NCBI RefSeq assembly: GCF_050280645.1
Contig: NZ_JBNNVR010000017.1
Location: 35,242-67,241 of the forward strand
Source of the DNA: Pseudomonas sp. NPDC089554
Lineage (GTDB): Bacteria > Pseudomonadota > Gammaproteobacteria > Pseudomonadales > Pseudomonadaceae
Reading direction: 5' to 3'
Length of the DNA stretch: 32,000 bases
The notes beneath the pieces were generated by a model. That model worked only from the letters and a program-made list of their open reading frames with translations, searched no databases and had not been told where the DNA came from. Made by a program: the position numbers and the translations under genes. Below are positions 12,267 to 29,303 of the stretch, piece after piece; the first letter of the stretch is position 1; every line of letters begins with the position of its first letter.

Positions 12267-12298
12267 GCGACTCGGTATTGAAGTGTAGACGCCGCCCG

Positions 12299-13240
12299 TC
12301 ACCCCGGCGCCAGCAGCAGGTTCGGCGCCAGGCGCTGGAAGCCTTCGTCATCCAGGCGGATATCCAGTGCCAGGCTGGCCAGATCATCGGCCAGCGCGTC
12401 ACCGCCCGCGTCGTTCTCCAGGTAGCAATGCTTGAGGTAGGTGTTGCACCCCGGACAGCATTCGGCACGCAGCGGCGCCTTGCCCGGCGCATGGCGGTCG
12501 TCTTCCAGGCTGGTGTAGCGCAAATCCTTGCTCGACTCGCAGTACACGCACTTGACCCGCACCACGTGCCACTCGCAAGCGCACAACGAGCAGGCCAGGT
12601 AGCGCAGGCCGTTGTGCTTGCCGCGGTTGCGCACCAGCCCGGCCATGGCCGGCGAGCCGCAGGCAGGGCATTGGCCCAGGCTGCCCGCAGGCTTGAGCTC
12701 CGTCGCCGGTAGCGCCAGCAGCCAGCTGGACCAAGCCGCTTGCAGCGCCGCACCGATGAACGGCACCAGCGCCGGCGGCACAGCATCGTACTGCCCACCG
12801 AGCAAAGCGATGCCCCAGCCTTTGCGCTGGGTTTCATCACTCGCGCGCAACGCTCGCAGCGCTTCGGCCAAGGGCCCTGAAGCTGGAGCCTGGAGTTCGT
12901 CTATCAACGCCTGCAACCACACCAGCCAGGCCCCTTCGCGCACCAGGCTGTCGGCCGCCAGGGGTGGCAACCCGTGGTTCAGGCACAAGCGTTGACGCGC
13001 CTCGGCCACCGGTAGGTCGCTGGGTGGATGGTCCACCAGGCGCTGCTGAAGATGACAAAGCTGGGCGACCAGGCGCAGGTAGTCCCCCAGCGCATGGCCT
13101 TCGGCAAGCCGCTCCAGGCGCGCGGCGCGCAGTTCGAACAGGTTGGCGGGCGGCAGGTGCAGGAAAGGCGGCATCACCGCCGAGGCTTCGATCTGCCCAG
13201 GTTCGAGTATCGTGCTCAAGCGTTCATCCTTCTTTTCCAC
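12299..13240 (-). CDS. fdhE: formate dehydrogenase accessory protein FdhE
   Basis: There are four CxxC-type clusters (CPACGS, CSLCACEW, CVYCES, CPGCNTYLK) and an 'LGDYLRLVAQL' region as in FdhE. ATG 13240 overlaps fdoI by 17 nt. The alternative TTG 13219, preceded by AAGGA, would begin 4 nt downstream of the fdoI stop with no overlap. Confidence 0.85.
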   Translation of the reverse strand: MEKKDERLSTILEPGQIEASAVMPPFLHLPPANLFELRAARLERLAEGHALGDYLRLVAQLCHLQQRLVDHPPSDLPVAEARQRLCLNHGLPPLAADSLVREGAWLVWLQALIDELQAPASGPLAEALRALRASDETQRKGWGIALLGGQYDAVPPALVPFIGAALQAAWSSWLLALPATELKPAGSLGQCPACGSPAMAGLVRNRGKHNGLRYLACSLCACEWHVVRVKCVYCESSKDLRYTSLEDDRHAPGKAPLRAECCPGCNTYLKHCYLENDAGGDALADDLASLALDIRLDDEGFQRLAPNLLLAPG

Positions 13241-13880
13241 CGTGACGCGGCGGCGACTTGTCGCCGGTCACGTCGCGGTACCACAGTTCATGGTGCTTGC
13301 GTGCCCAGGCGCGGCTGACCCAGCCATGCAGCATGGCGCCGACCGAGCCCTTGATCCAGATGCCCGCATAGATGTGCACGATGATGCTCAGCACCAACAC
13401 GAAGGCCGCCAGCGCGTGCAGCAAGCTGGCCAGGCGAATGGCGCCGATGCCGAAGAACTCGCTGAAGTAGGCGCGCCAGATCACCACGCCACTCACCAGC
13501 AGCACCAGCATGCACAGCAGCAGGGTCCAGAACAGCAGCTTCTGCCCGGCGTTGTACTTGCCAATCGGCGGTACGCCCTCTTCTTCGTTGCGCATCACCC
13601 GGTCGACACGGCGTAGCCACAGGCGGTCGTTGGCGGTGATGAAGTTGGCGCGCCAGAAGCGCACCACCAGGCCGAGGAAGAACACGAACATCGCCACGCC
13701 CAGGAACGGGTGCAGGATGCGTGTCCACGGCCCACCGCCGAACAGGTGGCTCAGCCAGAACAGCGCCGGGTGGAAAAGCGCCAGCCCCGACAGCCCGGCC
13801 ATGAAGAACAGGATCGCGACGATCCAGTGGTTGGTCCGCTCGTTGGCGTTGTAGCGCAGGATGGGCTTGTTGTCTTTCAT
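13224..13880 (-). CDS. fdoI: formate dehydrogenase gamma subunit (cytochrome b556)
   Basis: 218 aa with four hydrophobic helices. '[18 protein letters not shown]' is the typical FdnI/FdoI N-terminus with a heme-ligand His. It has an ATGA overlap with the fdoH stop. Confidence 0.9.
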
Positions 13881-14827
13881 GGCCGCTGCTCCCCTTGCCC
13901 GCCGGGCTTGCCCGGGTCGTAGACGTGAACCGCCGGGTCCACCTGGTGCACGCTGGCATCGGTTGGCGCGGGGTGTTCATCCTCCTCCACCCGCTGCGGG
14001 CCGACCCGCACATAGTGGAAGAACCCAGCCAGCACCGCTGCGCCCATGGCCAGCAGCGCCAGCGGCTTGCTGATGCCCTTCCACAGCCCCACCAGCGGGC
14101 TGATCACCGGCTGGTCCGGCAGGCCGGCGTACAGGCGCGGGGTGTCGGCGTGGTGCAACACGTACATCACGTGGGTGCCGCCCACGCCGTCCGGGTCATA
14201 CAAACCCGCGTTCTCATAGCCACGGGACTTCAAGTCGACGATGCGTTCGTCGGCATGCACCTTCATCTCCTCCTTGCTGCCGAAGACGATGGCCCCGGTC
14301 GGGCAGGTCTTCACGCAGGCCGGCTCCAGGCCCACGGCCACGCGGTCGGAACACAGGCTGCACTTGTAGGCCTTGTGGTCTTTCTGCGAAATGCGCGGGA
14401 TGTTGAACGGGCAGCCGGTGATGCAGTAGCCACAGCCGATGCAGTGGTCCTGGTTGAAGTCGACGATGCCGTTGGCGTGCTTGATGATCGCGCCAGGGCT
14501 CGGGCAGGCCTTGAGGCAGCCGGGGTCGGCGCAGTGCATGCAGCCGTCCTTGCGGATCAGCCACTCGAGGTTGCCATCGTCGCGCTCATGCTCAGTGAAG
14601 CGCATCAGCGTCCAGGTGTCGGCGGTCAGGTCCTGGGGGTTGTCGTAGGTGCCGTGATTGTGGCCAACCTCGTCACGCAGTTCGTTCCACTCCGAACACG
14701 CCACCTGGCAGGCCTTGCAGCCGATGCACTTGGTGGTGTCGATCAGCTTGGCCACTTCCTGCTGCTGGCGTACCGAAGAGGGTACGGTCGTGGTGGCCGA
14801 GCGGGCGATGATATCTTGCTGGGCCAT
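13877..14827 (-). CDS. fdoH: formate dehydrogenase beta (Fe-S) subunit
   Basis: Four ferredoxin-type Cys clusters ([44 protein letters not shown]...CVKTCP) plus a C-terminal membrane anchor. It has a TGATG overlap with fdoG. Confidence 0.92.
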
Positions 14828-17800
14828 CAGACTTTCTCCACATTGACGAGGAACGACTTGGACTCCGGCGTCTGGGTGTTGCCATCACCGAGGAACGGCA
14901 CCAGGGTGTTGGTCAGGTAGCCATGCCGAGTAGAACCGGTGAAGCCCCAGTGCAACGGGATGCCGATCTGGTGGACGGTCTGGTTGTTGACCTGCAGCGG
15001 ACGAATCCGCTTGGTCACCACCGCCACCGCCTCGATAAACCCGCGCTTGCTCGACACCCTCACCCGGTCACCGGCCTTGATGCCCTTCTCGGCCGCCAGC
15101 ACCTCGCCGATCTCGACGAACTGCTCGGGCTGGATGATCGAGTTGAGCTGGCAGTGCTTGCTCCAGAAGTGGAAATGCTCGGTCAGGCGATAGCTGGTGG
15201 CCGCGTAGGGGAACTCCTCGTGCTTGCCGAGCGTGTCCCACACCGAGTCGAACACCCGACCGGCCGGGTTGCTGGTGGCCTTGGGGTTCTGCGGGTGCAG
15301 CGGGTTGACACCAATGGGCGTCTCGAACGGCTCGTAGTGCTCGGGGAACGGCCCTTCGGCCATCTTGTCGATGGCGAAGAAGCGCGCCACGCCCTCGGGG
15401 TTCATGATGAACGGGTTCATCCCCGCCTCCGGTGGCGAGTCAGCCTTGAAGTCCGGCACGTCGGTGCCACCCCAAGCCTTGCCGTTCCACCACACCAAGC
15501 GCTTTTTCTCCGGGTCCCAGGGCCTGCCCTGAGGGTCGCTGGAGGCGCGGTTGTAGAGGATGCGGCGGTTCGCCGGCCACGCCCAGGCCCAGTTCTGCAC
15601 TTGGTGCATGCCATAAGGGTCACTGTTGTCGCGCCGGGCCATCTGGTTGCCCTGCTCGGTCCAGCTGCCGCAGAAGATCCAGCAGCCCGAGGCGGTGCTG
15701 CCGTCGTCCTTGAGCTGGGCGAAGCCGGCCAGTTGCTGGCCGCTTTTGAGCGTGGCGCCGGTAGCGTCGGTGAGGTCACTGACCGCCCAGCCGTTCATCT
15801 CCTTGGCCAGCTCTTCCGGCGAGGGCTCTTCCGGCACCTTGTAGGGCCAACTGATGTTCATCATCGCGTCGGGGTACGCACCGCCCTCGGCCTTGTAACG
15901 CTCGCGTAGACGCAGGAACAGCTCGCTCATGATGTGCACATCAGTGCGCGTCTCGCCCGGGCCATCGGCGCCTTTCCAGTGCCATTGCAGCCAGCGGCTG
16001 CTGTTGACCAGCGAGCCGTCTTCCTCGGCAAAGCAGGTGGTGGGCAGGCGGATCACCTCGGTCTGGATGCTGCCGGTATCGACATCGTTGTAAGGCCCGG
16101 CGTTACGCCAGAACTCGGACGTTTCGGTGGCCAGCGGGTCCATGATGACCAGCCACTTGAGCTTGCCCAATGCAGCGGTGACGCGGTTCTTGTCCGGCAG
16201 CGCGGCGATCGGGTTGAAGCCCTGGCAGATATAGCCGTTGACCTTGCCCTGGCTCATCATCTCGAACATGCGCAGCACGTCGTAGGCCGGTACGTCGAGC
16301 TTGGGCAGCCAGTCATAGCCCCAGTTGTTCTCGGCGGTGGCCTTGGCGCCATACCAGGCCTTCATCAGGCTGACGTGGAACTTGCCGTAGTTCTGCCAGT
16401 ACGACAGCTGCCCTGGGCGCAGCGGCTTGGACGCGCGTTTGTCGACAAAGGCAGCATAGTCCTGCTCGGCATCGCCGCCCAAGGTGAGGTAGCCCGGCAG
16501 CGAGTTGGACAACAGCCCGAGGTCGGTCAGCCCCTGGATGTTGGAGTGGCCGCGCAAGGCGTTGACGCCACCGCCCGGCATGCCGACGTTACCCAGCAGC
16601 AACTGCACCATGGCCGCACTGCGGATGATCTGCGCGCCAATCGAGTGCTGTGTCCAGCCCAGCGCGTAGAGGATGGTCATGGTCTTGCCCGGCGCCGAGC
16701 AGGTGGCGATCTCTTCCCAGATCTTCATCATCTGGTCCTGAGGCATGCCACAGGTCATGCTCGCCAACTCAGGCGTGTAGCGGCTGTAGTGCTGTTTCAT
16801 CAGCTGGAACACGCAACGCGGGTGCTGCAGGGTCGGGTCGACCTGGGCGAAACCGTCCTCGCCAAGCTCGTAGCCCCAGCCGGACTTGTCCGCATAGACG
16901 CGCTTGGCCGCGTCATAGCCACTGAACAGGCCGTCTTCGAAGCCGTAGCTCTCTTTGACGATGAACGACACGTCGGTGTAGTTACGCACGTATTCGTGCT
17001 GAATCTTGTCGGTGCTCAGCAGGTAGTTGATCAACCCGCCCATGAAGGCGATGTCGCTACCGGTGCGGATCGGCGCGTAGTAGTCCGCCACCGAGGCGGT
17101 GCGGGTGAAACGTGGGTCGACCACGATCAGTCGCGCCTGGTTGTGCGCCTTGGCCTCGGTCACCCATTTGAAGCCACAGGGATGTGCCTCGGCTGCGTTG
17201 CCGCCCATTACCAGGACCAGGTTTGCGTTGGCGATATCAGACCAATGGTTGGTCATCGCACCACGGCCAAACGTCGGGGCAAGACTTGCCACCGTCGGGC
17301 CGTGTCAGACACGTGCCTGGTTATCGAACCCCAGCATGCCGAGAGAACGGACGACCTTGTGGGTCAGGTAGCCGGCTTCGCTGGATGCAGCAGACGCGGC
17401 GAGAAAGCCGGTGCTGACCCAACGGTTGACGGTCTGGCCCTGGGCGTTCTTCTCGATGAAGTTGGCGTCACGATCCTCTTTCATCAGCGTGGCAACGCGG
17501 TCAAGCGCTTCGTCCCAGCTGACGCGGACCCACTCCTTGCTGCCCGCCTTGCGTACCTCGGGGTACTTGAGGCGGCTGGGGCTGTGGATGAAGTCGAGCA
17601 GGCCCGCACCTTTCGGGCACAGCGTGCCGCGGTTGACCGGGTGGTCGGCGTCGCCCTCGATGTGGATGATGCTCTGCTTGACGTTTTTCCCGGCATCGCC
17701 CTGGCTGTACAGGATCAGGCCGCAGCCGACCGAACAGTAGGGGCAGGTGTTGCGGGCTTCTTTAGTGTGCGCCAGCTTGAAGTGGCGCACCTGCTCGGCG

Positions 17801-17895
17801 AACGCAGGTGTCGGGGCCATGCCCAACGCCGCGAGGCTCGAGCCTCCAAGGCCTATGGCAGCGGCCTTGAAGAACTGCCGACGGTTGAGATCCAT
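14827..17895 (-). CDS. fdoG: formate dehydrogenase alpha subunit, selenocysteine-containing (in-frame TGA at 17305-17307 read as Sec)
   Basis: ATG 17895 is preceded by AGGAG. There is a Tat signal [18 protein letters not shown]...AFA and an Fe-S motif CPYCSVGCG. Track ORFs 17305-17955 and 14827-17292 are in the same frame, and the junction reads ...[30 protein letters not shown]. That matches the E. coli FdnG/FdoG Sec site as I recall it. Sec is residue 197 from this start. Confidence 0.93.
17262..17304 (-). promoter_or_regulatory. SECIS element directing Sec insertion at the fdoG UGA
   Basis: Minus-strand RNA reads UGA-CACGGCC-CGA-CGG-U-GGCAA-GUC-UUGCC-CCG-ACGUUU-GGCCGUG. The lower stem is CACGGCC/GGCCGUG. 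The upper stem has a bulged U at +17, with G/U at +23/+24 of the apical loop, counting the U of UGA as +1. This is the geometry I recall for E. coli fdhF SECIS recognition by SelB. Confidence 0.8.
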
Positions 17896-18052
17896 CGTGC
17901 ACTCCTGATCAGGTGTGGGCGCACGGGACGTTGCCGGCGCCTCTCGGGACATCACGGTGGCGGTAGGTAGATACCGCCACCATTAAGCCTAGCCAAGAAT
18001 CCGGGAAGTGCGATGACGGGGGTCAACAGGGGAGCGAGGCCGATATTCAGGC

Positions 18053-18088
18053 AAAAAAAACCGCCACTGGCTCAGTGGCGGTTTTTTT
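18053..18088. terminator. Bidirectional rho-independent terminator-like hairpin at the core/island junction
   Basis: A8, then stem ccgccact / agtggcgg (loop ggctc), then T7. It lies upstream of fdoG and downstream of the minus-strand Abi gene. It marks the last GC-rich core-like sequence before the composition drops. Confidence 0.65.
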
Positions 18089-18194: not shown

Positions 18195-18232
18195 TGTAAA
18201 CACAACCAAGATTTAAAGCTCTGTTGTTTACA
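18195..18232. repeat. Inverted repeat TGTAAACA-N22-TGTTTACA (left copy)
   Basis: gaaaTGTAAACAcaaccaagatttaaagctctgtTGTTTACAc. A further half-site-like cgtaaacaac lies near 18,126. It sits just downstream of the Abi gene. Confidence 0.6.
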
Positions 18233-18260: not shown

Positions 18261-19178
18261 TCAGGACCAGAATGGCCGGATCTCCCAACCTGCCACCAGG
18301 CCTAGCTCGGCCGTGGTTCGGCCTGCTTTCCCTAAGCCGACCGTAGGCAGGGTCGACATCAACTGCTTGAACCGTACCTTCCAGTCGGAGGTGGGGTCGA
18401 TTTTTTCGAGCAAAGCCTGGACGACGACTGCTCGGGCAAAAATGCGCCCTCGATCATTGTGACTGGGAAACTCACCGGCAATAGCCTTGGCGTATTTCGG
18501 CGCATCTGCGGTGATCGATGCGTTCCACAGCCTGCCATGGTGGGCGCAGACATTTCGCAGGATGGTCAGGCTTTTCAGCCAAGTCACCAACACGGACTCG
18601 TCGTACCCGAATTTGGCCGCTACAGTTTTGCGATGATCCAGGTGCAGATCACTGAACAGGCGCGAAAGCTGGCCGATGGTCATCGCCTCGAGAACCGTCC
18701 ACACAGGCGGCAGGGCCGGCGTGTTGTAGTTATCGTAGTAATGCTTGATGGCCGCATTTTTTTCCGGAAGGCCCAGCACCTGTTTCATGACGTCGCGATG
18801 AGCTTTGCAATCCTTGAAGTGGATGGCGTCCATGTAGAAATGACTACCGCAGGTCTTGTCCAGAGCCAAGGTGTTGATGATCGCTGCACGGAACGCGACC
18901 TCAATGCGATCAATCGCATCCAAGAACACGAGGCGTAGCCGGCGATCGAAGTCATAAAGCTGTAGGATATCGTCGAACTGGACGGTGGCAAAGAACCGCT
19001 TTTGAGGGTCCTGCAGCGGCCGCATGTAGATCAGCAGGCGGTGATAGCCGATGAACTCTAGGGCGTGCAACGCTTTGTCTCGCTGTCCGCGGGTGCCTAA
19101 GCCTTTGAGTCTCAGGTGGCGCAGCAGAGCGTTGGGTGGCTTCGCAGGCTTGAGGAAATAGAGGGGTGCTTGCGGCAT
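18261..19178 (-). CDS. Abi_2-family (AbiD/AbiF-like) abortive-infection protein
   Basis: ATG 19178 (MPQAPLYFLKP...). 'GYHRLLIYMRP', 'LYDFDRRLRLVFLDAIDRIEVAFR', 'LPPVWTVLEAMTIGQLSRLF' and 'LRNVCAHHGRLWN' match the Abi_2 (PF07751-type) pattern as I recall it. Confidence 0.8.
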   Translation of the reverse strand: MPQAPLYFLKPAKPPNALLRHLRLKGLGTRGQRDKALHALEFIGYHRLLIYMRPLQDPQKRFFATVQFDDILQLYDFDRRLRLVFLDAIDRIEVAFRAAIINTLALDKTCGSHFYMDAIHFKDCKAHRDVMKQVLGLPEKNAAIKHYYDNYNTPALPPVWTVLEAMTIGQLSRLFSDLHLDHRKTVAAKFGYDESVLVTWLKSLTILRNVCAHHGRLWNASITADAPKYAKAIAGEFPSHNDRGRIFARAVVVQALLEKIDPTSDWKVRFKQLMSTLPTVGLGKAGRTTAELGLVAGWEIRPFWS

Positions 19179-19301
19179 GCCAAAGCATCCTGCGGGGGCA
19201 TGGGGCCAGAAATAACTAACCCCCTGGTGCGCAGTACGGGACAAGTCCCGCCCGAGGCGTGGGGGCTATTCTTGAGATCAATGCTAACACGTTCCTACTG
19301 G

Positions 19302-19319
19302 TTGATCAAATTTGATCAA
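19302..19319. promoter_or_regulatory. Perfect 18-bp palindrome TTGATCAAATTTGATCAA, a candidate operator upstream of the Abi gene
   Basis: The sequence equals its own reverse complement. It lies about 125 bp upstream of the Abi start codon in a 480-bp non-coding stretch and contains two GATC sites. Confidence 0.45.
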
Positions 19320-19496
19320 TCTGCCAGGCAAAACGAAGCCAAATCAACACGTTACCGCCTTCCAACCGGTGTTCATCGCTGTCATTGCAGATTCCAGCTG
19401 AACCGGTAGGGATCCATGAACGGTTCTATGCACGTTGATAGCGTAAACCTCAAATCAGGGTATTGGGTACGCATAAAGATCTCCAATCAGGGAAAG

Positions 19497-19533
19497 TGTA
19501 AACAAAATCCAGGCGACGGGCGAGCTGTTTACA
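19497..19533. repeat. Inverted repeat TGTAAACA-N21-TGTTTACA (right copy)
   Basis: gaaagTGTAAACAaaatccaggcgacgggcgagcTGTTTACAtt. It has the same architecture and the same GAAA(G)TGTAAACA arm as the copy at 18195-18232. The two copies bracket the Abi gene and its upstream region. Confidence 0.6.
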
Positions 19534-19659
19534 TTTTATTGATTCAACAACGGGTACCCACGTGCTCGTCACGACACTTCGTTGATCACCTAGATTGCCG
19601 ACACTCCGAGCACTCTACTAACAAGTCTTGCAGAAGAACATACACCGCAGACCAGAAAA

Positions 19660-20409
19660 TCAGTCGACCGGATAGATCATTTGATGAACAACCTCAAGAA
19701 ATGTAGTGTACCGCTCATCAAATGACGGAGAAACTTCAGAGGCGCTCTCCAAAATTCGCTCATGCTCATCTATAACCTTATTTAATCCAATGAGCGAAAA
19801 ACAGCTCTCCACATTCGCTTCAGCCAAAATAAATTTATGAGAACGATCAATATGCCTATCGAGACACCATTCAACACTCACCCCTTCTTCTTGGAGTGTT
19901 AAATAAACACTAGACTCTAACGCACTACCTAGAACATCATTGCCACAGCCGCACTGACATAACAATGGGCGGTATTCCTGACCGAAAGTTTTAGCCCTGA
20001 CAAACCCTATCTCTCGAAACAAACTTTGATGAACAGAAAAAGACACATCCATCATATTTTCGAAAATAGACAGCCCATCAAAAATCACATAATCAACCTC
20101 ATCCGCCTCTAAGCTTTCAGAAAGAGACACGCTTCCAGACGTTGAATAAAACCCAATAAACTTCTGAGCTCCATGCTGTATCAACCTATCTAGAACCGAG
20201 CACTCATCTCCAGCATAAACAGGGCGCTGAGCTCTAGAAAAATGCTTGCAACTAACTAGATAGGTTACATCGTCTAATTGAGCAATCAAATCCTTCCCTT
20301 GATCTGGCCCGACTGATGGAGGCTCTAGTACTGTGTAACCTTGACTGGCTAAATAATAGCTCGCAAAATATTCCCATTGGTGGGAACTAAGCTGATCGAA
20401 GATATGCAT
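19660..20409 (-). CDS. Hypothetical protein: N-terminal Mrr-like PD-(D/E)xK fold plus C-terminal CxCGCG cysteine-cluster domain (paralog B)
   Basis: ATG 20409 is preceded by GAGGAG and forms a TGATG overlap with the upstream paralog. 'WEYFASYYLASQGYTV...GPDQGKDLIA...YLVSCKH' has the layout of Mrr_cat-type restriction endonuclease domains. 'YRPLLCQCGCGNDVL' is shared with the upstream gene. The region is AT-rich. Confidence 0.7.
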   Translation of the reverse strand: MHIFDQLSSHQWEYFASYYLASQGYTVLEPPSVGPDQGKDLIAQLDDVTYLVSCKHFSRAQRPVYAGDECSVLDRLIQHGAQKFIGFYSTSGSVSLSESLEADEVDYVIFDGLSIFENMMDVSFSVHQSLFREIGFVRAKTFGQEYRPLLCQCGCGNDVLGSALESSVYLTLQEEGVSVEWCLDRHIDRSHKFILAEANVESCFSLIGLNKVIDEHERILESASEVSPSFDERYTTFLEVVHQMIYPVD

Positions 20410-21215
20410 CAAAACTCCTCAACCGAAAAAAAGAAGCCAGCATTGACAGATCGCATGCGCTGTAAAATTCTTGATACAAAAATTCGTTTATGACCGTGGT
20501 ATTCGCTCAAATCAAAATTTGGATTTTCACGCAGATAGTCCTTAAGCTGACCATTCCAGATATTGAACTGATCGGGGTGTAATATCTGATTAACCTCCAT
20601 CCAGCCACATGGAGTGTTATCCTCGCAAACTTTAAATATGTGGTCTTTTACACCATATATAAAGTATAGCTTATCTTTCGACAGATGAACAAAAGCCGCC
20701 GACCACCCTATTGAACGAGGCCCCTCCAAAATATCCTTGCCGCACCCACACATACAAAAAAGCGGCTTATACTCTACCTCACTCTCTTTATTCAAATAGT
20801 AATTCCAAGCCCAATTCCAACCATCCTCCCTACCACCAAAAAACTTATCGATGAAGCTAGAACTAGAATATGGCAGAAGCACTGATACCTGCACCCCACC
20901 AATTAACTCCACATGACAATTCAAAGTTTTGAGGCGCACCTGCAGGCTTGTCGTAAACTCCCCTGAATAAAAACCAATAAACCCCTCTGCATTGGCACGT
21001 CGCATACGCGAAGTTATATCCTTTTCGATGCTAGTACCGACAGCACCACCATTAATGTTGTGCCGTAGACTTACTAAAAATCTCTTTCCCTCCACGCTAA
21101 AGACATCAAAATCAGATACCCAATCACGATCCCATCCAGCCTGCTGAAGAAACTCTAAACCAAAATCCCGCCATTTTTCATCAGACCAATATTTTATTTC
21201 TTGTAGATAATTCAT
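20409..21215 (-). CDS. Hypothetical protein: degenerate Mrr-like fold plus CxCGCG cysteine-cluster domain (paralog A)
   Basis: ATG 21215 (MNYLQEIKYW...) is preceded by AAGGTG. It shares 'W..F....L...G', 'FLVSLRH' (versus 'YLVSCKH'), 'FIGFYS' and 'YKPLFCMCGCGKDIL' with the downstream gene. It is 268 aa. Confidence 0.7.
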   Translation of the reverse strand: MNYLQEIKYWSDEKWRDFGLEFLQQAGWDRDWVSDFDVFSVEGKRFLVSLRHNINGGAVGTSIEKDITSRMRRANAEGFIGFYSGEFTTSLQVRLKTLNCHVELIGGVQVSVLLPYSSSSFIDKFFGGREDGWNWAWNYYLNKESEVEYKPLFCMCGCGKDILEGPRSIGWSAAFVHLSKDKLYFIYGVKDHIFKVCEDNTPCGWMEVNQILHPDQFNIWNGQLKDYLRENPNFDLSEYHGHKRIFVSRILQRMRSVNAGFFFSVEEF

Positions 21216-21487
21216 CTCAGCACCTTTGTTAAAAACAATAATTCCACTCACTAGCAGAGGCACCACTCGAAACTAGAACAGCTGATCAGGCTCCTGATGT
21301 ACCGCTCACCCGCCATGCGCGTCGACTGAAGCCATGACTAAAAAGGACGGAGTTGGATACAATTACCAAGCTAATTTCCCTTACGGTAATAGGCTGGGCT
21401 ATAAAATCCGTCAGCATCGGTCTCAGCTTGATATGAATAAGTGTCGAAGAAACTAGGGGCTGTTCACTATGCCCACGCAGTTAATAC

Positions 21488-23257
21488 TTATGGAGTTTCC
21501 CAAAGCGCGTCAAGATTGACATCATCACTCGCGGGCCTATGTCCTTCCAGCAGTGGATCTACCTTCAGGATCATCGGCAAATCGAAGGCCGTTCCAGTGA
21601 GTACGCAGCATCCTTTGGCTAAGGTAGGTATCAACGATTTGGACGAGGTGTCCAATGTACTGATCGTATTATCGAGCAACATCAAGTCACGCTCATTGAC
21701 CAAACGATGAATGAAGAAATTGTGAATCTGAGAGACGATAGTGGGTGAAATGTCCGCAGGCCGTTGGCTGGAGAGCGTCAGGTACACACCATATTTTCGT
21801 CCTTCCTTGATGATTTCCTCAAACAGCTCCAACCGATAATCCTTCCAGATTTCATGCTCTCGAGTAGATTGTTCGGAGAGAATGTTATGTGCCTCATCAA
21901 TGATCAGGTGCAGGGTTTTCGTCGGAGGGCTGTTCAGCCCTTCCGCTTCCTTGTGGTTCACATAAAAACTCTTGGCAATAAGCATCGGTAGAATTTTCTT
22001 CACATCGTTCTTGCATTTTTTAAGCGAAATGACATGCAACAGATCAGGTGGCGGTGCGTCATCGACGATGTGCAGCACATTACGCAATCCCGATAGAGAA
22101 GATCTCGCCCTGGCCAATACGGGCTGGATATGCTCGTATTGCGCGTAGCCCATCACGACATCGTTGGAGAGCTGTAGATAACACCGCAAAAGTAGCTCAT
22201 CGAATTGATCCAGCGCCTCCAGCTTCACATGCTCAGCTAGGAACGGCTGTAAAAAGGCAGCAAATGCCTGCCCATCAGAATCGTAGTAATGGCCTTCCAG
22301 CGCTCTAAAATACTTATACTGTGCATGGTATTTGACCCCGGCCAAATGGTATTGAAGCGCTTCCGAGTCGACAATTCGGGCGACCTCGCGGGTCAGCTCC
22401 AGCGCTTCCGGTTTAGGCTCTGCGGCAGCAAATACCCGCTCAAAGGTTTTGACCAAGAAATGCGCGAGCGGAATGTCTTTAAACTTCTCCCGCCCCGATA
22501 GTACCCGCCGCAGAAACGGTGCCTGCGTGTTGGTGGTGGCCTGGAACAGCAGGCTGAGGGTTTCCGCGTCCCAGAAGTGAGCGCTTTCCAATGTGAATCT
22601 CTGCGCACCCTTCTTGGAATCTAGAATGGTCACCTTTTTATCTGCGGTCGCCAGGATCTGGCCACCCGTGTACTCACCATTGAAATCAATGATGACAAAC
22701 TGACTCTTGCCCTTTAACCCCTCAAGCTTTTCCCGAAACAACGTCGTATAGAGCTTGGCTAGGGTGTTCGACTTCCCACTGCCCGTGTTCCCAAAAATGC
22801 CCAGATGGCTGTTAAAGAGGCGCGTCCAGGGGAGACTGATGGGGACGTTTTCCTTGAGCATCGCACCGATGGTAAAGCTGGCCCCATCATTCACACCGTA
22901 GATCTTTCCGACCATTTCCTCACTGAGCAAGGAGGCGCGGTCCCGGATCATCGGCATGTACTTCACGCCCTCATAGAACTGATGATTGGCGACGTAACCG
23001 ATAGGCCTGACATCCACTTTCCTGACGTACACGGTGTTTTCGGCGGTTTCGTCCAGCTTTCGCTCATCCAGGTATTCGCCTTCGACCAGACAGACGATAT
23101 CGATAAATCCACGCTGGATCAGCAAGTGCTCCCGGATGGAGACCCCTCGGTACTTCACCCCATCGTGAAAGAGGGTCTCCTGGTTGGAGTCCTCGAATAT
23201 CCTGAGGGTGATCCTGACGCCGCTGACCGCGATAACCTCACCGACCGAGATAGCCAT
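21488..23257 (-). CDS. herA: HerA-like ATPase (DUF87/FtsK-HerA superfamily) of a SIR2-HerA defence system
   Basis: An N-terminal HAS-barrel-like 'ISVGEVIAVSGVRITLRI', Walker A 'GIFGNTGSGKSNT' (22769-22792) and Walker B 'LHLIIDEAHNIL'. It is 589 aa and forms a TGATG overlap with the upstream SIR2 gene. Confidence 0.85.
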   Translation of the reverse strand: MAISVGEVIAVSGVRITLRIFEDSNQETLFHDGVKYRGVSIREHLLIQRGFIDIVCLVEGEYLDERKLDETAENTVYVRKVDVRPIGYVANHQFYEGVKYMPMIRDRASLLSEEMVGKIYGVNDGASFTIGAMLKENVPISLPWTRLFNSHLGIFGNTGSGKSNTLAKLYTTLFREKLEGLKGKSQFVIIDFNGEYTGGQILATADKKVTILDSKKGAQRFTLESAHFWDAETLSLLFQATTNTQAPFLRRVLSGREKFKDIPLAHFLVKTFERVFAAAEPKPEALELTREVARIVDSEALQYHLAGVKYHAQYKYFRALEGHYYDSDGQAFAAFLQPFLAEHVKLEALDQFDELLLRCYLQLSNDVVMGYAQYEHIQPVLARARSSLSGLRNVLHIVDDAPPPDLLHVISLKKCKNDVKKILPMLIAKSFYVNHKEAEGLNSPPTKTLHLIIDEAHNILSEQSTREHEIWKDYRLELFEEIIKEGRKYGVYLTLSSQRPADISPTIVSQIHNFFIHRLVNERDLMLLDNTISTLDTSSKSLIPTLAKGCCVLTGTAFDLPMILKVDPLLEGHRPASDDVNLDALWETP

Positions 23258-24387
23258 CAGTGGGCCTCCCCAGGCTCGTAGGGCTGCGGGCTGAGCGAAA
23301 GGACATGCTTGTTGAAATGGGAAAAATTCAGGTTCGCCCCTTCGGGCGGGCCAATGACCTTCACGTTTCTCCAGGCGCCAAATTCGTCGCGCATTTTCCG
23401 CGCGCCCCCTTGGCTATAGGCACAAACAAACGTCTGGAGCTTGGGGTTTGACAGCGAGCGCTGGACAAGCTTGAGGATGTGCTCGTCCGCAAAGGAGAAT
23501 CCGAAAGTGATCAGGATCGAGTTAGGTCGCTCCAGCTCGTAGCTGAGCAGCCTGAGCATTTGATAGTAGTGCTCTTCAAAAACCGTCTCGTGAAACTTCC
23601 ATTTGGTAGGGTTAACGATGGGCAGCTTGTTATATTCGTACCAGAATTTTTCCATCTGATTAGGTGTAAGCTTCACCAACGGAACCTCGTCAGTGACACC
23701 ACCTTTGGTAACTAAGTACTTTGAAAACTCTGAAATCTTATTTTCGACATGCGGGGTGAGCATTTTTTTGAAATCATTCGTGTAGTTCACCTCAATCTTG
23801 TCACCACTCTTCGCCCAGTAGACCGAGCCATGCAGGTGAATAATGTTCAACTGCGGGACGCCGTAGGCAGCACGCTCGAACACCCCAGTCTGGCATTGAA
23901 AAGTGTTGAAATTCCTAGCGTGCAAATGCTTCTTGTAAAACCCTGACGTCCCATCGTTCACAACAAATTCGTGCACCCCTTTCACCAGTAAGCGATCAGC
24001 CGCGTGCGTCAGGCAGCCATCATAATTGGTGGTGAAGATGTTGATTTTGCGATTGGCATCCTTTCTTCGGTCTAGGAACCCCAATAACGTATGCAAAAGC
24101 ACTTCGTAGTGTTGAAGATTCTCCAGCCCCTCAGGCGTGGTAATCGCGGCCGGAGTAAAAGTCTGTACCGGGTGGATGCACGTGTTGTAGTAGTGCATGA
24201 ACAGCGCCGCGTTTTTTTCGGGGCGAAGTGCGTACTTGGTCGATAGGGTTTCAATCGTCTCCCAGTTGCCTTGCGCATCCCGAATCTGCAACCCCAGGGT
24301 GGGAAACAGATCCGCCGACGCACCCGAGCCGATCAGGATATTAACGTTTTTGTTGTAGATATCCAGTGCTTCTATGGGCTCAAACAT
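23257..24387 (-). CDS. SIR2-family (SIR2_2-like) NADase effector of a SIR2-HerA defence system
   Basis: ATG 24387 is preceded by AGGAGG. 'ILIGSGAS', 'FTTNYDG' and 'IIHLHGSVYW' are the three conserved SIR2_2 motifs, including the catalytic-region His. It is directly coupled to herA. Confidence 0.85.
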   Translation of the reverse strand: MFEPIEALDIYNKNVNILIGSGASADLFPTLGLQIRDAQGNWETIETLSTKYALRPEKNAALFMHYYNTCIHPVQTFTPAAITTPEGLENLQHYEVLLHTLLGFLDRRKDANRKINIFTTNYDGCLTHAADRLLVKGVHEFVVNDGTSGFYKKHLHARNFNTFQCQTGVFERAAYGVPQLNIIHLHGSVYWAKSGDKIEVNYTNDFKKMLTPHVENKISEFSKYLVTKGGVTDEVPLVKLTPNQMEKFWYEYNKLPIVNPTKWKFHETVFEEHYYQMLRLLSYELERPNSILITFGFSFADEHILKLVQRSLSNPKLQTFVCAYSQGGARKMRDEFGAWRNVKVIGPPEGANLNFSHFNKHVLSLSPQPYEPGEAH

Positions 24388-24752
24388 TCAACCTCCTGTC
24401 TCTAGGCCTATCGCCTTGTCCTGTACGGCGCCTTTCACGAGAGTTTTTCGATACGCCTGCCCAGCAAGCTACTGTTTTGCCACCATGGTGTCTACTCATG
24501 GCCTGTAGACTTTCTCATTGCACGACTCCCCCCGCACCCTTAGTAACCAGGCAGGCATATGACTACCTAGTCGAGTAAGGCTGAGACGGGCGGCGCTAGA
24601 CATTCTGGGGTCGTGCCGTTTCGGCAGTTGTCCAAACCTGGTGGAACACATCGTACTCCAGCAGTGCCAACCCAGCATGTCGATACCTGCCCAAACGGTT
24701 ACACTCGAATAGGGCAAGGTGCCATCAATCAGTTTTTGCTACGGATACCCGC

Positions 24753-27700
24753 ATGGATTACTCACGCATCAGGGGCATGGAATCAGGACAGCGCCTCGCT
24801 TTCGAAGAACTCATTTGCCAGCTGGCTCACCTTGACCGGCCAGCCGCTGACGCCGAATTCAGGCGAATTGAAGGTGCAGGGGGAGACGGCGGGATCGAGG
24901 CCTACTGGTTGCTCAAAGACACAAGCGAAATCGGCTACCAGGCGAAATACTATTTAAAGTCCAGCGAGATTGATTGGGCCAATATTGACGAGTCAGTTAA
25001 ACAAGCTCTCGCGACTCATCCTTCTCTGACAAAGTATGTTATTGCCATTCCATGCGACCTTACTGATAAGACAGGTCGAAAAGGCGGAGGCATGACCGGA
25101 TGGGAGCACTGGGCAACGCACAAGGCTAAGTGGGAAGGCCTTGTTCCTGCGGGAAAACAAGTAGAATTTGTTCCCTGGACAGCCTCCACCATCACTGAGC
25201 GGCTGATACGACCGAACGCTGAAGGGCTTCGTAATTTTTGGTTTGGCGATGTTGAGCTTTCGGAATGTTGGTTCAGAGAAAAGATTGAGCTGTCAGTTAA
25301 GTCTTTGGAAGAGCGCTATCATCCCGAGGATCACGTAGAAGTACGAATCGAAAAGCTATTCAGAGTAGCGCTTCATGATAAAGGCATAGCCTCTGAGATC
25401 CGGGATCAAATAGCCAAGCTCTGTGACGCGATTAGCCTGGAAAAGGTTGAGAAAACTCTAGGCGAAAAAGCAATCCCCATAACTAATATCATCCGCGACG
25501 CAGCTAAAATCCTAGAGAGATTAGCGCTAGACATAACAATAGACCCATGGCGCCCATGGCCTATTGCAGAATGCACAGAATCCGCCACTGAAATCAGTAA
25601 ACAACTGTCACAGTTGTGGTCTGCCAAGTGGGAAGCTGACGAAACCAGAGCAAAGCCCAAAAACGCGCATGACCAAGATTCGAACGACTTAGAATACAGA
25701 CTCGGCAGAATTGGCGGTGAAGCCGACTCTCTGCTCTCGTTACTTGGAAACCAGTATTTTGACGGAGAAAAATCACGAACTATCTTCTTATACGGCAGAG
25801 CGGGAACGGGCAAATCTCACCTATTGGGGAGTGTTGCGCAACGGGCCGTATCGGAGGGAAGAAGTGCAATATTGATCTTGGGGCAGCATCTTAGCAGTGG
25901 CAACCTCTGGAAACAGATCACGTCGAGGCTAGAGCTAGGCGATATCACCTCTGACGTCTTCCTTAAAACTCTAAGCGCTGCGTGCGAGGCTACTGGTAAA
26001 CGAGGCTTACTATTAGTCGACGCCATAAATGAAGGGGCTGGCCGGAGGCTCTGGAATGGTGAGCTGGCAGAGTTTATCACCAAAATTGAAAAGTACCGTA
26101 ACTTGGTACTGGTAATCAGCTGCCGAACTGAGTACACGAAGAATATAATCCCAGAGCCGGTGCTCGACAGGTTACCCTCATTTGAAGTCCGAGGTTTTGA
26201 GACGGCTGGCGAGCAAGCAAGGGCAGCCCGAATTTATCTTAGCAAGCGTGGAATATCTCAGCCAAACAGCCCCTGGCTATCTGAAGAATTTGTAAATCCG
26301 CTCTTTCTTAGAAGTGCATGTATCGCCCTTCAAAAAGACAAAAAAACTTCATTCCCACAAGGGCTAAATGGAACTAGAGACGTATTTATATTCTATCTAA
26401 AAAGCATCGCTAGAAATTTAGGGGTAGGCCAGGACGGCACCGATACTCTAGTACCGCCTACTATCCAAGCTCTGGGCGCAATAGCTTTGGACATGGCGGA
26501 CAAACGCCGTGACTACGTTCCTAAGAGCCAATCCATACAAATCGTAGGGCAGAGATTTGAGGGTCATCCTGCGCCAGCAGGCACAAACTGGCTTGAAGTG
26601 CTTCAGCGCAATGGATTGTTCAGGGTAGACCCAGGCCAAAAAAGTGACAATGGCAACCTATTTGATTACCCAGAAGACATCATCCGATTCAGCTTTCAGA
26701 GGTTGCAGGATCATCTGATGGCTGACGCCCTACTCAAAGAGGTTCAAGACCCGTCAAGAGCCCTTGAGAATGGCTGTCTCAGCTTTATTCATGATGGCGA
26801 GCAACTCGATTGGGAGTGGACTGGCCTGGTTGAAGCTCTTTCTATACAGCTGCCTGAGCGTTTTAACAGAGAACTACTAGATTTATTGCCTGGCGACATC
26901 AATACCTGGGCAAACGATTATGAAGTTCGCGAATCTTTTATTGAGAGCCTAAAGTGGCGCAACAGTAGTGCTTTCACGGAGCGAACCTTCGAAATATACG
27001 AAGCACTCCAGAACCATTTCAACAATTACTTCGACGTCATTATTCAACTCAGCACCATTCCCGACCACCCTTTTAACGCACTGTTCATTCATAAAAAGCT
27101 GCTCTGCATGAAGATGGCTGAGCGCGATTCATTCTGGACTCGCCAGATCAACGATCTCTCTCTCGACGAGGGAAGTATCTCCCGACGTTTGATTGATTGG
27201 AGCGCACTTGAACAAAGTGAGGATGCGGCCCCCGAGATTCAGTATCTCTGTGCTATTACCCTGACCTGGTTCACCTCTAGCACATGTAGGGAGCTTCGGG
27301 ACAAAGCAACGAAGGCACTCACCTCGTTGCTACGTCACAACCTGAGCCTCTACAAAGAACTGAGTGAGGCCTTCCAGACCGTTGATGACCTTTACATCGT
27401 TGAGCGCCTACACACCGCCGCTTACGGTGCCTGCTGTATAGACCCAAGCAAAGAACGATTGCCGATGTTCGCAGAGGTTGCCTACCGATCCGTGTTTGAT
27501 CGTGATGAGGTGCCCCTGTCAATACATCTTAGAGACTCAGCACTTGGAATTATCGAGCTTGCCAAATTCCACGAGTGCCTACCTGATAGCATCGACATCC
27601 AGCATGCCCGTCCGCCCTACCGGACGAAACCAATTCGACTCACTGTCACGGAAGAATCTCTCAAAAAAGTCGTCGAAAAGGCTGGTGATTCACAAATCAG

Positions 27701-29303
27701 TCGCTCCTGTACTGGATGGATTGGGGATTTCGCCAACTATGAGATTCAACCTCGGATCGGTTCATTCCTGAACATTTCGCTGAGGAAGCCTGAACCGCTT
27801 TCGGCGGATGAGTTGTATGAGCGTTTTGAAGAAGAGGTGATCAATCACTGCCAGGAGAGATCCGAGATTCTCCGTATGATGCACTCCTTCAGGGAAAATC
27901 CATTCAAGATGCTCCTAGGACATGAAGACACTGAAGAATCTGAAGAATCTGAAGAAAATAAGACATTATTCAAGCGGTCCGAAGCTCTACTTCTCTTACT
28001 GCTGAACCCGGCTGAGAAGCGGAGATACACCAAGGAATACAAGCCGCGCTTTGACGCCTCAACGGGTCGACACGACAGACAGCCACACGTAGACGTCAAA
28101 GCTGCTCAGTTCTGGGTCGCGAAACGGGCTTATGGTTATGGTTGGACAGCCGAGCGTTTCCCTCATGACCAAAGCTTCCGGCATCAACATGGCCGCGAGC
28201 GCCCCGCTGGTGAGCGAATAGGCAAGAAGTACCAGTGGCTAGCTCTCGACGAGCTTCTGTGCAGCCTTGCAGACAACAATTGGATGTCTGAGACGGCCTA
28301 CCATGGATCTCGTCAGTATTCAGGCCCGCTAGATATAGGGTTTCATCGAGACATCGATCCCACCATTTTGCTTCCGGACGAGGCTCGGCCCGCTCCAAAG
28401 CTCTCAATCCCCAAGCATGAAATCTCCATGAGGGATACATCTGAAGCCGAGCTGAGCAAATGGCCGTTCGAGGAAGACCCTTCTGTGAACATGAAGAATC
28501 TCACAGCCAGGGTGGATTCCGAAGGACGCAGATGGGTTGTTCTCAATGAGCATCGCTCTGTATCCGAATACTACAAGGACAAAGCTAAACGTGAGCACGG
28601 ACTCAGAAAACAGGAGTGGCGGTTCCTTCTGCCAATAATCGTGAGACAGAAAGATGAGAAAAGACTCATCGAATACCTGCTTGCCAAGCACGACATTGAG
28701 GTCAATGACTGGTCAACTCGGGGCTCCACCGGCTCCGCTTTCTTACTCGAGGCGCCGTGGCGTTCTGTGTGGGATCAGGAGCAGTGGTCGCTGATGGAGT
28801 TCCGCGACATCGGCGAGGTTGAGATCGCCTATCCCTGCTATCGGTATTACTGGGAGTCGCACTGTGACGCATCCCTGCCTGATGGAGCTGAAGCGTTGCT
28901 GCCGGCCCCTTGGCTAGCTCACCGGCTTGGCCTCAAAGTCGATGCTGACAATCCCAACGTCTATTTGGACAGCACAGGCACGCCTTGCTTCGTGAGCGGC
29001 AAAAGCCGAGATGATGGTTCGCACGCATTCATCGATGAAAAACTTTTCGACGCCTTCCTCAAAGAGGACGGCCTCTCCTGCGTCTGGGTGTTTGTAGCCG
29101 AACGAGGTGCTTGGCCCGGAGGTGGTAATTGGCACGCATCCTGGCGCCGCTCCGAAGGCTTTGTATGGCAGAAAAAGGGAAAACCTCAAATGCACCATTG
29201 GAACGACGATACCGACAAGGGTGAGTCGCGCGATTCATCAAGCCCCGGCCTCGTGCGGACTGTCAGCGCACCTATTGATGAACCCAACGACTGCAGATCA
29301 TAG
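24753..29303 (+). CDS. 1,516-aa protein: N-terminal Mrr-like nuclease motif, then a STAND/NACHT-like P-loop NTPase, then a long C-terminal region of about 1,050 aa (Avs/bNACHT-like candidate)
   Basis: A single uninterrupted ORF. 'GAGGDGGIEAYW...GYQAKYY' (D45...Q63-x-K65), Walker A 'LYGRAGTGKSH' (25794-25817), Walker B 'LLLVDAINEG' (26007-26036), then 'LVLVISCR'. There is no clear SD at ATG 24753, so the start could be ATG 24777. Confidence 0.8.
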   Translation: MDYSRIRGMESGQRLAFEELICQLAHLDRPAADAEFRRIEGAGGDGGIEAYWLLKDTSEIGYQAKYYLKSSEIDWANIDESVKQALATHPSLTKYVIAIPCDLTDKTGRKGGGMTGWEHWATHKAKWEGLVPAGKQVEFVPWTASTITERLIRPNAEGLRNFWFGDVELSECWFREKIELSVKSLEERYHPEDHVEVRIEKLFRVALHDKGIASEIRDQIAKLCDAISLEKVEKTLGEKAIPITNIIRDAAKILERLALDITIDPWRPWPIAECTESATEISKQLSQLWSAKWEADETRAKPKNAHDQDSNDLEYRLGRIGGEADSLLSLLGNQYFDGEKSRTIFLYGRAGTGKSHLLGSVAQRAVSEGRSAILILGQHLSSGNLWKQITSRLELGDITSDVFLKTLSAACEATGKRGLLLVDAINEGAGRRLWNGELAEFITKIEKYRNLVLVISCRTEYTKNIIPEPVLDRLPSFEVRGFETAGEQARAARIYLSKRGISQPNSPWLSEEFVNPLFLRSACIALQKDKKTSFPQGLNGTRDVFIFYLKSIARNLGVGQDGTDTLVPPTIQALGAIALDMADKRRDYVPKSQSIQIVGQRFEGHPAPAGTNWLEVLQRNGLFRVDPGQKSDNGNLFDYPEDIIRFSFQRLQDHLMADALLKEVQDPSRALENGCLSFIHDGEQLDWEWTGLVEALSIQLPERFNRELLDLLPGDINTWANDYEVRESFIESLKWRNSSAFTERTFEIYEALQNHFNNYFDVIIQLSTIPDHPFNALFIHKKLLCMKMAERDSFWTRQINDLSLDEGSISRRLIDWSALEQSEDAAPEIQYLCAITLTWFTSSTCRELRDKATKALTSLLRHNLSLYKELSEAFQTVDDLYIVERLHTAAYGACCIDPSKERLPMFAEVAYRSVFDRDEVPLSIHLRDSALGIIELAKFHECLPDSIDIQHARPPYRTKPIRLTVTEESLKKVVEKAGDSQISRSCTGWIGDFANYEIQPRIGSFLNISLRKPEPLSADELYERFEEEVINHCQERSEILRMMHSFRENPFKMLLGHEDTEESEESEENKTLFKRSEALLLLLLNPAEKRRYTKEYKPRFDASTGRHDRQPHVDVKAAQFWVAKRAYGYGWTAERFPHDQSFRHQHGRERPAGERIGKKYQWLALDELLCSLADNNWMSETAYHGSRQYSGPLDIGFHRDIDPTILLPDEARPAPKLSIPKHEISMRDTSEAELSKWPFEEDPSVNMKNLTARVDSEGRRWVVLNEHRSVSEYYKDKAKREHGLRKQEWRFLLPIIVRQKDEKRLIEYLLAKHDIEVNDWSTRGSTGSAFLLEAPWRSVWDQEQWSLMEFRDIGEVEIAYPCYRYYWESHCDASLPDGAEALLPAPWLAHRLGLKVDADNPNVYLDSTGTPCFVSGKSRDDGSHAFIDEKLFDAFLKEDGLSCVWVFVAERGAWPGGGNWHASWRRSEGFVWQKKGKPQMHHWNDDTDKGESRDSSSPGLVRTVSAPIDEPNDCRS

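Follow-up and report, generated by a model that had tools for sequence, protein, structure and literature searches.

A mobile two-gene cassette in a Pseudomonas defense island encodes a predicted Mrr-family nuclease and its pseudo-nuclease paralog

Why a bacterium would carry, side by side, a gene for a putative nuclease and a second gene for what looks like a dead copy of it is the question raised by a defense island of Pseudomonas sp. NPDC089554. We analyzed a 32,000-nucleotide stretch of that genome (assembly GCF_050280645.1, contig NZ_JBNNVR010000017.1, positions 35,242 to 67,241), here called the window, in which gene A (20409 to 21215, minus strand) encodes a protein of 268 amino acids (aa) and gene B (19660 to 20409, minus strand) encodes one of 249 aa. 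The open reading frame (ORF) of A spans 20409 to 21266, and the ATG at 21215 was taken as its start, a choice that fits the MNYL N terminus common to all orthologs; the ORF of B spans 19660 to 20412, with its ATG at 20409. A is annotated as a "hypothetical protein" (WP_427664730.1) and B as a "restriction endonuclease" (WP_427664728.1). We propose, leaning modestly toward this reading, that the cassette that carries both genes (19565 to 21459) encodes an A-B heteromeric, zinc-containing nuclease of the Mrr family that acts in defense, with A as its regulatory or recognition subunit.

A and B are paralogs. An initial annotation, made from the sequence of the window, had paired the two proteins on the basis of shared motifs, and all of the motifs it quoted are present and conserved across the two families. 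BLASTP aligned A with B at 26% identity over 166 aa (E = 2e-10), and when profiles of the families were compared with hhalign (30 A-type and 17 B-type clusters), the alignment extended over 249 columns with 99.9% probability (E = 3e-33). Thus, the A and B families are homologous over their full length, from end to end and beyond the shared motifs.

The homology begins with a nuclease fold. Residues 1 to 120 of B (20050 to 20409, minus strand) are predicted to form an Mrr_cat-type PD-(D/E)xK domain on the evidence of Pfam PF04471, Foldseek, and invariant columns, and residues 1 to 125 of A (20841 to 21215, minus strand) are predicted to form a degenerate, Mrr-like version of it on the evidence of AlphaFold2 (AF2) topology, Foldseek, and a motif table. 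The match of B to PF04471 (Mrr_cat) scored 23.0 bits against a cutoff of 21 and covered residues 5 to 60 only; A gave no PF04471 match in a Pfam scan at E<=1, and 24 of 31 members of the wider family matched Mrr_cat at E<=0.1, the best at 2.8e-7. In the AF2 models, which had a mean predicted local distance difference test (pLDDT) score of 82.8 for A and 70 for B (with a confident N-terminal domain), both N-terminal halves follow the alpha-beta-beta-beta-alpha-beta order of the restriction-endonuclease core. When the B model was compared with the PDB by Foldseek, the best matches were MspJI (3.4e-4), AF1548 (8.7e-4), and AspBHI (4.6e-3), followed by XisH, Can2, Cdn1, Card1, and Hjc. The A model matched MspJI and AF1548 at an E value of about 1e-2, Avs4 also matched structurally, and viral models labeled "Restriction endonuclease" were found in BFVD (E = 1.6e-5 to 6e-4, 120 to 135 columns, root mean square deviation of 3.4 to 4.0). 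The models therefore support a PD-(D/E)xK core in the N-terminal domains of both proteins.

The active sites of the two families differ sharply. B had been credited with a D...xK arrangement like that of Mrr_cat domains; the active-type motif is better written D-x12-S-x-K than (D/E/Q)xK. The B family invariably has E13 in helix 1 (WExF), G34-x-D36-x-G38-x-D40 leading up to and into strand 2, S53-C54-K55 within strand 3, and E69 where the following helix begins, and these active-type residues are likewise conserved in single-gene relatives and in a wider family of about 300 aa. The spacing from the Asp to the Ser is 13 residues, the same as from Asp to Gln in Escherichia coli Mrr. In the A protein of the window, helix 1 reads WRDF, such that the Glu is replaced, the GxDxGxD loop is absent, and S49-L-R51 stands in place of S-C-K. 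The Arg at the Lys position and the missing loop had been noticed in this one protein, and the same holds family-wide: among 30 A-family clusters, the helix-1 Glu has become R, K, H, I, or Y, the loop is gone, the Lys position holds R, N, Q, I, or rarely K, and only the Ser is kept. Residues of the catalytic type are thus invariant in the active type and lost together only in A, as one would expect if they formed a genuine active site. Judging from these alignments, A is a pseudo-nuclease, and B is plausibly, not certainly, catalytic; we consider activity of B likely.

An enzyme that has lost its catalytic residues might simply be a functionless duplicate in decay. The ORF of A is intact in all genomes examined, however, and the A family retains 51 invariant columns among sequences as low as 45% identity. 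Moreover, dN/dS ratios indicate purifying selection on both genes (0.10 to 0.17 for A and 0.07 to 0.17 for B). A also codiverges with B: the pairwise divergence of one tracks that of the other (r=0.965, 13 pairs), and the two subtrees have the same branching order in a tree with saturated distances. The diverged A-type branches found in Enterobacter and Gibbsiella likewise remain paired or intact. Because of the invariant columns and a dN/dS ratio that matches that of B, we conclude from sequence conservation that A is not a decaying copy, and decay is scarcely credible as an explanation of the pair.

A and B are also inseparable in the genomes that carry them. A lies directly before B at all nine distinct genomic sites examined, namely, those of the window, Pseudomonas viridiflava, Pseudomonas contig L002, Pseudomonas aeruginosa, Citrobacter, Klebsiella, Pseudomonas IT-P253, Pseudomonas koreensis, and Enterobacter; adjacency at every site, codivergence, and purifying selection on both genes bear out the expectation that they co-occur as a pair. 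Reading the junction in the window (20407 to 20420, minus strand) confirmed the TGATG overlap and the GAGGAG that had been reported ahead of the second start. GAGGAG (20420 to 20415) ends 5 nucleotides (nt) 5' of the B start codon, and the stop codon of A (TGA, 20411 to 20409) has one base in common with the start codon of B (ATG, 20409 to 20407), such that the sequence reads GAGGAG-TTTT-GATG. In the eight junctions read directly (the window and seven others), the two genes either share 1 or 4 nt or lie 1 to 3 nt apart, and the gap in Enterobacter is 9 nt. Scans of 19000 to 21700 for promoter and terminator consensus sequences, together with an Rfam search, gave nothing over background. On the strength of this linkage and of the homology of the two proteins, A and B quite probably form a physical heteromer.

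Tight coupling is, however, also a habit of toxin-antitoxin operons. B could be a nuclease toxin and A an antitoxin derived from its paralog, such that the pair would stabilize the elements that carry it and phage defense would be a by-product of antitoxin loss. The gene order suits that idea, as the putative inhibitor comes first and the stop and start codons overlap as in type II toxin-antitoxin operons; A is without catalytic residues, and the cassette is carried by an integrative and conjugative element (ICE), by integrase islands, and at sites flanked by an insertion sequence (IS). But A is as large and as constrained as B, possesses an invariant zinc ribbon and C-terminal motifs of its own, and, as a full-length paralog of 268 aa, gave no helix-turn-helix (HTH), ribbon-helix-helix, or AbrB match in a Pfam scan. 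Moreover, active-type homologs exist as single genes without a partner, which indicates that the nuclease needs no antidote and is not intrinsically lethal, and the Enterobacter copy sits between housekeeping genes with no evident mobile element. An addiction module is therefore improbable, and we return to the heteromeric defense nuclease and to the parts of A and B that follow the nuclease domain.

How the C-terminal halves are built is best seen by comparison with the single-gene relatives, which have a classical zinc ribbon of the form CxxC...YGCKxC. In both A and B, the first knuckle is instead C-x-C-G-C, and the second knuckle is without its first Cys. The A region (residues 149 to 268; 20412 to 20771, minus strand), which matched no library, is predicted from conservation to hold a zinc ribbon, with residues C154-x-C156-G-C158, H/C192, and C203, and an alpha/beta-helical module; its second knuckle reads YG(L/V)Kx(C/H) and is followed by the invariant C203. 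In B, the knuckle C151-Q-C153-G-C155 (19945 to 19959, minus strand), recognized by conservation and family comparison, has invariant C151 and C155, with conservation of at least 90% at C153 and H186, and the almost invariant His186 in the second knuckle is the likely fourth zinc ligand. A conserved metal site would be expected to offset a ligand gained in one knuckle by a ligand lost in the other. The Cys cluster, earlier suggested to be possibly a zinc module, accordingly resembles a single zinc-ribbon knuckle whose ligands shift in a compensating manner among members of the family, and the CxCGC knuckle is a derived character common to A and B. We note that a metagenomic protein of 421 aa (P0159) with a weak Pfam match to DUF6527 consists of six repeats of YY-x-D-x-x-C-x-C-G-C-G...H, in which the CxCGCG knuckle of A and B recurs; the knuckle may be a more widespread mini zinc-binding unit.

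The region after the ribbon in A contains invariant LHPDQF and QRxRxxNxGxF motifs, and it is modeled with a pLDDT of 80 to 93 at residues 150 to 250. The C-terminal halves of A and B found no match in Pfam, NCBIfam, PADLOC, or PDB sequences, and Foldseek gave nothing beyond the N-terminal domain. An exhaustive search of 1.84 billion representative proteins with a profile of the module returned only 28 clusters, nearly all of them proteins of about 260 to 275 aa with the module at the same position. One protein of 420 aa (P0142) carries the module behind a PIN_8 nuclease domain (135 bits), which suggests that the module is portable between nuclease effectors and may have a sensing, regulatory, or assembly role. 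Recognition of nucleic acid by the module would be a guess.

Where the pair came from is indicated by its homologs. True homologs of A and B fall into two groups of single-gene proteins, themselves uncharacterized, that share the N-terminal WExF...GxDxGxD...VSCKH...GFxGFYST domain followed by a zinc ribbon and a helical tail but that differ from A-B in being encoded by one gene, in keeping an active-type site, and in having a CxxC...CxxC (Cys4) ribbon rather than CxCGC, with neighbors that vary or are absent. One group consists of proteins of about 300 aa (such as P0024, P0030, and P0049) with an active-type site and Cys4 ribbon from Deltaproteobacteria, Gemmatimonadota, and Bacteroidales, with variable partner genes or none. 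The other consists of proteins of about 265 aa (P0018, P0138 to P0151, and Clostridium botulinum WP_172688036.1) with an active-type N-terminal domain and an A-like C terminus; examples lie at the end of a prophage and on a C. botulinum plasmid adjoining genes for NERD and Spaf_1101 ATPase proteins. The A and B clades were seen in Gammaproteobacteria only. In a neighbor-joining (NJ) bootstrap of 100 replicates, monophyly was recovered for A in all 100, for B in 98, and for A, B, and the single-gene proteins together in all 100. The CxCGC innovation common to A and B favors one duplication followed by asymmetric divergence, and origin of the pair by a single tandem duplication is likely, albeit unproven.

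How much of the surrounding DNA belongs to the system is answered by P. koreensis. The only DNA shared between the window and the P. koreensis locus (L025) is 19565 to 21459 (minus strand), which aligned over 1,897 bp at 86.7% identity between unrelated flanks and comprises the two genes with a leader of 244 bp ahead of A and a trailer of 95 bp behind B. The leader is conserved despite differing upstream neighbors. A and B are the only genes of the cassette, and no methyltransferase consistently adjoins it across the nine sites. The pair had been called AT-rich, at about 40% GC by a hand count; we computed 41.7%, versus 65.4% in the core genome to its left (1 to 17900) and 50.9% in the remaining island. 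The cassette is similarly AT-rich in every other host checked, at about 39 to 42% GC in hosts of 58 to 65%; windows of 1 kb gave 41 to 44% in P. koreensis, and in Enterobacter the values are 38.7% versus 59%. Terminal repeats were sought at the cassette ends and none was convincing; a 19-nt direct repeat at 20143 and 20964 was discarded because it is merely the sequence encoding GFIGFYS in both paralogs.

The pair might nonetheless be an accessory of its neighbors. As first described, it lies between an Abi gene and SIR2-HerA, and we found AbiD downstream (18261 to 19244) and HerA (21488 to 23257) and SIR2 (23257 to 24387) upstream, with Avs2 (24753 to 29303) beyond. These adjacent genes share one strand and one island with the pair. 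The HerA gene, however, lies 272 bp upstream of gene A, in agreement with the gap of about 270 bp first given, and the DNA shared with P. koreensis ends before both neighbors: its edge at 21459 leaves 29 bp to the stop codon of herA, and its edge at 19565 is about 320 bp upstream of abiD. Moreover, SIR2-HerA and AbiD are beside the pair in the window only and at none of the eight other sites, the GC content of the pair (41.7%) differs from that of SIR2-HerA (about 49 to 55%), and SIR2-HerA is already complete as a two-gene system in PADLOC. Because the shared block stops short of herA, we conclude, as had been surmised, that the pair is a module independent of SIR2-HerA. That point is settled, and a role as an accessory of either neighbor is very improbable.

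Near the cassette, we noted an inverted repeat, TGTAAACA-N21/22-TGTTTACA, in an element of about 140 nt that occurs twice in the window (18195 to 18232 and 19497 to 19533; none expected by chance). The two copies lie directly downstream of gene B and of abiD and thereby bracket abiD as direct repeats, and one copy follows gene B in P. koreensis too (L025, 11661 to 11698). Perhaps REP-like, or else a site of recombination or insertion, it could mark where cassettes join the island.

Whether the pair acts in defense was approached through the company that it keeps. In the window, the pair is accompanied by AbiD, SIR2-HerA, Avs2, and a DitA-like gene. In Citrobacter it is in an integrase island adjoining a candidate defense ATPase (PDC-S06), in Pseudomonas IT-P253 it is near HsdR and an integrase, and in P. 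koreensis it adjoins Beta_protein, an M78 peptidase, and a multiubiquitin/E2/E1-JAB operon. In P. viridiflava the pair adjoins IS66, in P. aeruginosa it is inside an integrase island, and in Klebsiella it is ICE cargo between type IV secretion system genes. The prediction that homologs would be found near defense genes is thus borne out by known or candidate defense genes beside the pair at four of nine sites, and hallmarks of mobile elements were present at six of nine; both are raw counts. From these neighborhoods, a role in defense seems rather likely.

Two of these loci hold further genes of note. In P. koreensis (L025, 362 to 2850 and 6992 to 8921), a multiubiquitin/Prok-E2_E gene and a ThiF-JAB gene beside the cassette make up a ubiquitin-like conjugation operon, and the Beta_protein and M78 peptidase genes resemble a defense locus of the gop-beta-cII type. 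In three P. aeruginosa assemblies (L004 to L006), two co-oriented genes of 426 and 367 aa that gave no Pfam or PADLOC match lie directly upstream of the pair, between it and an integrase, and may be another uncharacterized system carried as island cargo.

The cassette is rare. Carriers of the pair numbered 3 among 185,579 species-representative genomes, although it recurs in many P. aeruginosa isolates, with more than 100 contigs of that species carrying it. The pair was absent from 5,426 complete E. coli genomes searched by blastn with the Citrobacter copy and was not found among PLSDB plasmids, which yielded only the single-gene C. botulinum relative.

Several observations weigh against a catalytic, defensive A-B heteromer. 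The Enterobacter and Pseudomonas L002 sites (two of nine) have no recognizable defense or mobile-element neighbors, as the pair is inserted between thiamine and amino acid metabolism genes in the former and lies amid hypothetical genes in the latter. Searches of IMG/VR and of the INPHARED phages did not recover the family. A and B were exclusive sisters in none of 100 NJ replicates, and the AF2 model of the C-terminal half of B is poor, with a pLDDT of 33 to 55 at residues 121 to 170. Finally, the whole family has Ser in place of the acidic residue or Gln at the (D/E/Q)xK position, and catalytic competence is not assured.

The Ser, together with the two sites that lack defense neighbors, could mean that A and B are a nondefense nuclease, or a noncatalytic DNA-binding pair, that serves mobile-element biology in recombination, partition, or regulation. 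Inactive restriction-endonuclease sensors are a described class, and three relatives weakly match Pfam NA-iREase1. Nonetheless, E13, D36, D40, K55, and E69 are invariant in the active type and jointly lost only in A, and defense-gene neighborhoods recur. Moreover, sites of the SxK form that draw an acidic residue from a neighboring helix are catalytically active in Cfr10I and NgoMIV, and by analogy, E69 of B may possibly stand in for the acidic residue missing at S53. We regard a nondefense or noncatalytic role as unlikely.

How an A-B defense nuclease might work can be outlined. A self-contained, horizontally mobile two-gene cassette would produce an obligate A-B heteromer, the target of which would be invading DNA such as phages, plasmids, and ICEs. 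B would hold the sole active site (E13, D40, S53-x-K55, and E69) and would cut nucleic acid, most likely DNA. A, which retains the fold of a nuclease together with the zinc ribbon and the C-terminal module, would pair with B via the homologous domains and, as the subunit for regulation or target recognition, would permit B to cut. The split of labor found in homo-oligomeric relatives would thereby be hard-wired into two genes. As the cassette has no methyltransferase, self-DNA must be spared either by specificity or by an off state. Thus, the enzyme could be specific for modified or foreign DNA, as in Type IV systems, or it could be off until an infection signal is received, as in abortive infection; we slightly favor the former because MspJI and AspBHI, both Type IV enzymes, are among the closest structural relatives.

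The Type IV enzymes Mrr, MspJI, and AspBHI resemble A-B in nuclease fold, in motif spacing (an Asp and, 13 residues on, x-K), in having no methyltransferase partner, and in the siting of the pair in defense islands. They differ in that the nuclease domain of A and B is N-terminal, that Ser replaces Gln or Glu, and that there are two paralogous genes, one of them dead. Furthermore, no modified-base reader (such as SRA, winged helix, SBD, or DUF3578) was matched in the C-terminal halves of A and B by Pfam, NCBIfam, PADLOC, PDB, or Foldseek searches; a zinc ribbon and an unmatched module take the place of the SRA or winged-helix reader, and dependence of A-B on modification is conjectural. MspJI tetramers are reported to divide recognition and cleavage among identical subunits, and the same logic is proposed here for A and B. 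Cfr10I, NgoMIV, and Bse634I share with B the arrangement of PD...S-x-K plus a helix acidic residue, comparable to D40...S53-x-K55 plus E69 if E69 has that role, but no sequence similarity was detected, and they are homotetrameric Type IIF enzymes with cognate methyltransferases.

An active subunit joined to a dead paralog in place of an ancestral homo-oligomer is the design of XPF-ERCC1, Mus81-Eme1, and the archaeal alpha2-beta2 tRNA-splicing endonuclease. The comparison is one of analogy only: A-B has the sequence prerequisites, and a heterodimer is proposed. The enzymes compared are of unrelated sequence families with other accessory domains (ERCC4 and HhH2 versus Mrr_cat, a zinc ribbon, and a new module), and all three act in repair or RNA processing, not as a mobile bacterial cassette. 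Among defense systems, Shedu and KELShedu, END nucleases, and the Mrr-type effectors of Avs and short pAgo systems likewise combine a PD-(D/E)xK-type nuclease with a sensing or regulatory part, have no methyltransferase, and occur in defense islands, but they are without the CxCGC zinc ribbon and C-terminal module of A-B. Shedu, moreover, uses DUF4263, KELShedu has two components with a noncatalytic partner but KELA is not a paralog of KELB (PMC12577705), and END nucleases join a FokI-like domain to an inactive EndoIII domain (PMC12191111). A bolder form of our proposal is that the zinc ribbon and C-terminal module are an undescribed domain for sensing phage proteins or modified or foreign DNA, one that can be moved between nuclease effectors (Mrr-like here, PIN_8 in P0142), and that sensing and cutting are split between A and B in a new two-component system of the XPF-ERCC1 kind; we offer it tentatively, as the less likely form.

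The initial annotation could match the pair to no named defense system, and neither could we. None was found in Pfam, NCBIfam, PADLOC v2, PHROGs, or the literature searched, although a very recent name may exist. With the models of PADLOC-DB v2.0.0 (2023 release, including the PDC candidates), A had zero matches, the N-terminal domain of B matched weakly to Aga_REase-TIR (1.6e-6) and ZorD (0.028), and the wider family gave scattered weak matches only. Searches of NCBIfam and PHROGs returned nothing above noise for A or B, and A and B profiles compared with all PDB chains gave no match at E<=1. None of the literature searched, also by accession number and including papers on Avs8, END nuclease, KELShedu, and Domainator, describes the family. 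One A homolog is labeled "DUF4338 domain-containing" by NCBI, but we treat the label as unsupported, as DUF4338 was absent from Pfam scans of other A proteins (that of the window at E<=1 and two divergent ones of the A type, P0135 and P0136, at E<=0.01). The nuclease domain is by itself an ordinary and familiar member of the Mrr_cat/PD-(D/E)xK superfamily. Without a named counterpart in the libraries and papers searched are the combination of an N-terminal SxK nuclease with a CxCGC ribbon and a C-terminal module, the split into active and dead paralogs, and the 1.9-kb mobile cassette itself.

The rest of the window bears on the island rather than on the pair. The right half of the window (18261 to 32000) is a defense island that, besides the genes named above, includes a DitA-like protein (29318 to 30838; PADLOC, 2.3e-64); its Avs2 is 1,516 aa long. 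Next come a small ORF read as HTH-like (30966 to 31346) and an ORF read as integrase-like (31294 to 31980, minus strand). To the left lie tRNA-Sec (8708 to 8803, minus strand) and a formate-dehydrogenase-like large-subunit gene, judged by eye from its translation, that is divided into two ORFs (17305 to 17955 and 14827 to 17292), a putative split that we read as a selenocysteine codon. Between that gene and the island, a perfect 16-bp inverted repeat with a 3-nt loop (AAAAAAACCGCCACTG / CAGTGGCGGTTTTTTT, 18054 to 18088) looks like a bidirectional terminator at the boundary of core and island. The P. aeruginosa copies of the pair lie a few kilobases from selA, selB, and fdhE, on the other side of that locus. 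A common integration site was considered, as the window and P. aeruginosa copies are both near the fdh-sel locus, but they are on opposite sides of it and we do not claim one.

How much the pair matters depends on its nature. Should it turn out to be an ordinary Type IV-like enzyme, interest would be modest. If our proposal is true, however, a compact, methyltransferase-free nuclease system of about 1.9 kb would be added to the defenses of P. aeruginosa, Klebsiella, Citrobacter, and Enterobacter, and a new zinc-binding accessory domain would be defined. The pair would also be a clean bacterial case of an active nuclease teamed with a dead paralog, a design known mainly from eukaryotic repair nucleases, and extant single-gene relatives are at hand for direct comparison. 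Annotation would improve, as A is now a "hypothetical protein" everywhere, and the pair might provide a new nicking or modification-sensing enzyme. Ultimately, a defense nuclease that recurs in P. aeruginosa isolates would bear on phage-therapy host range in that organism.

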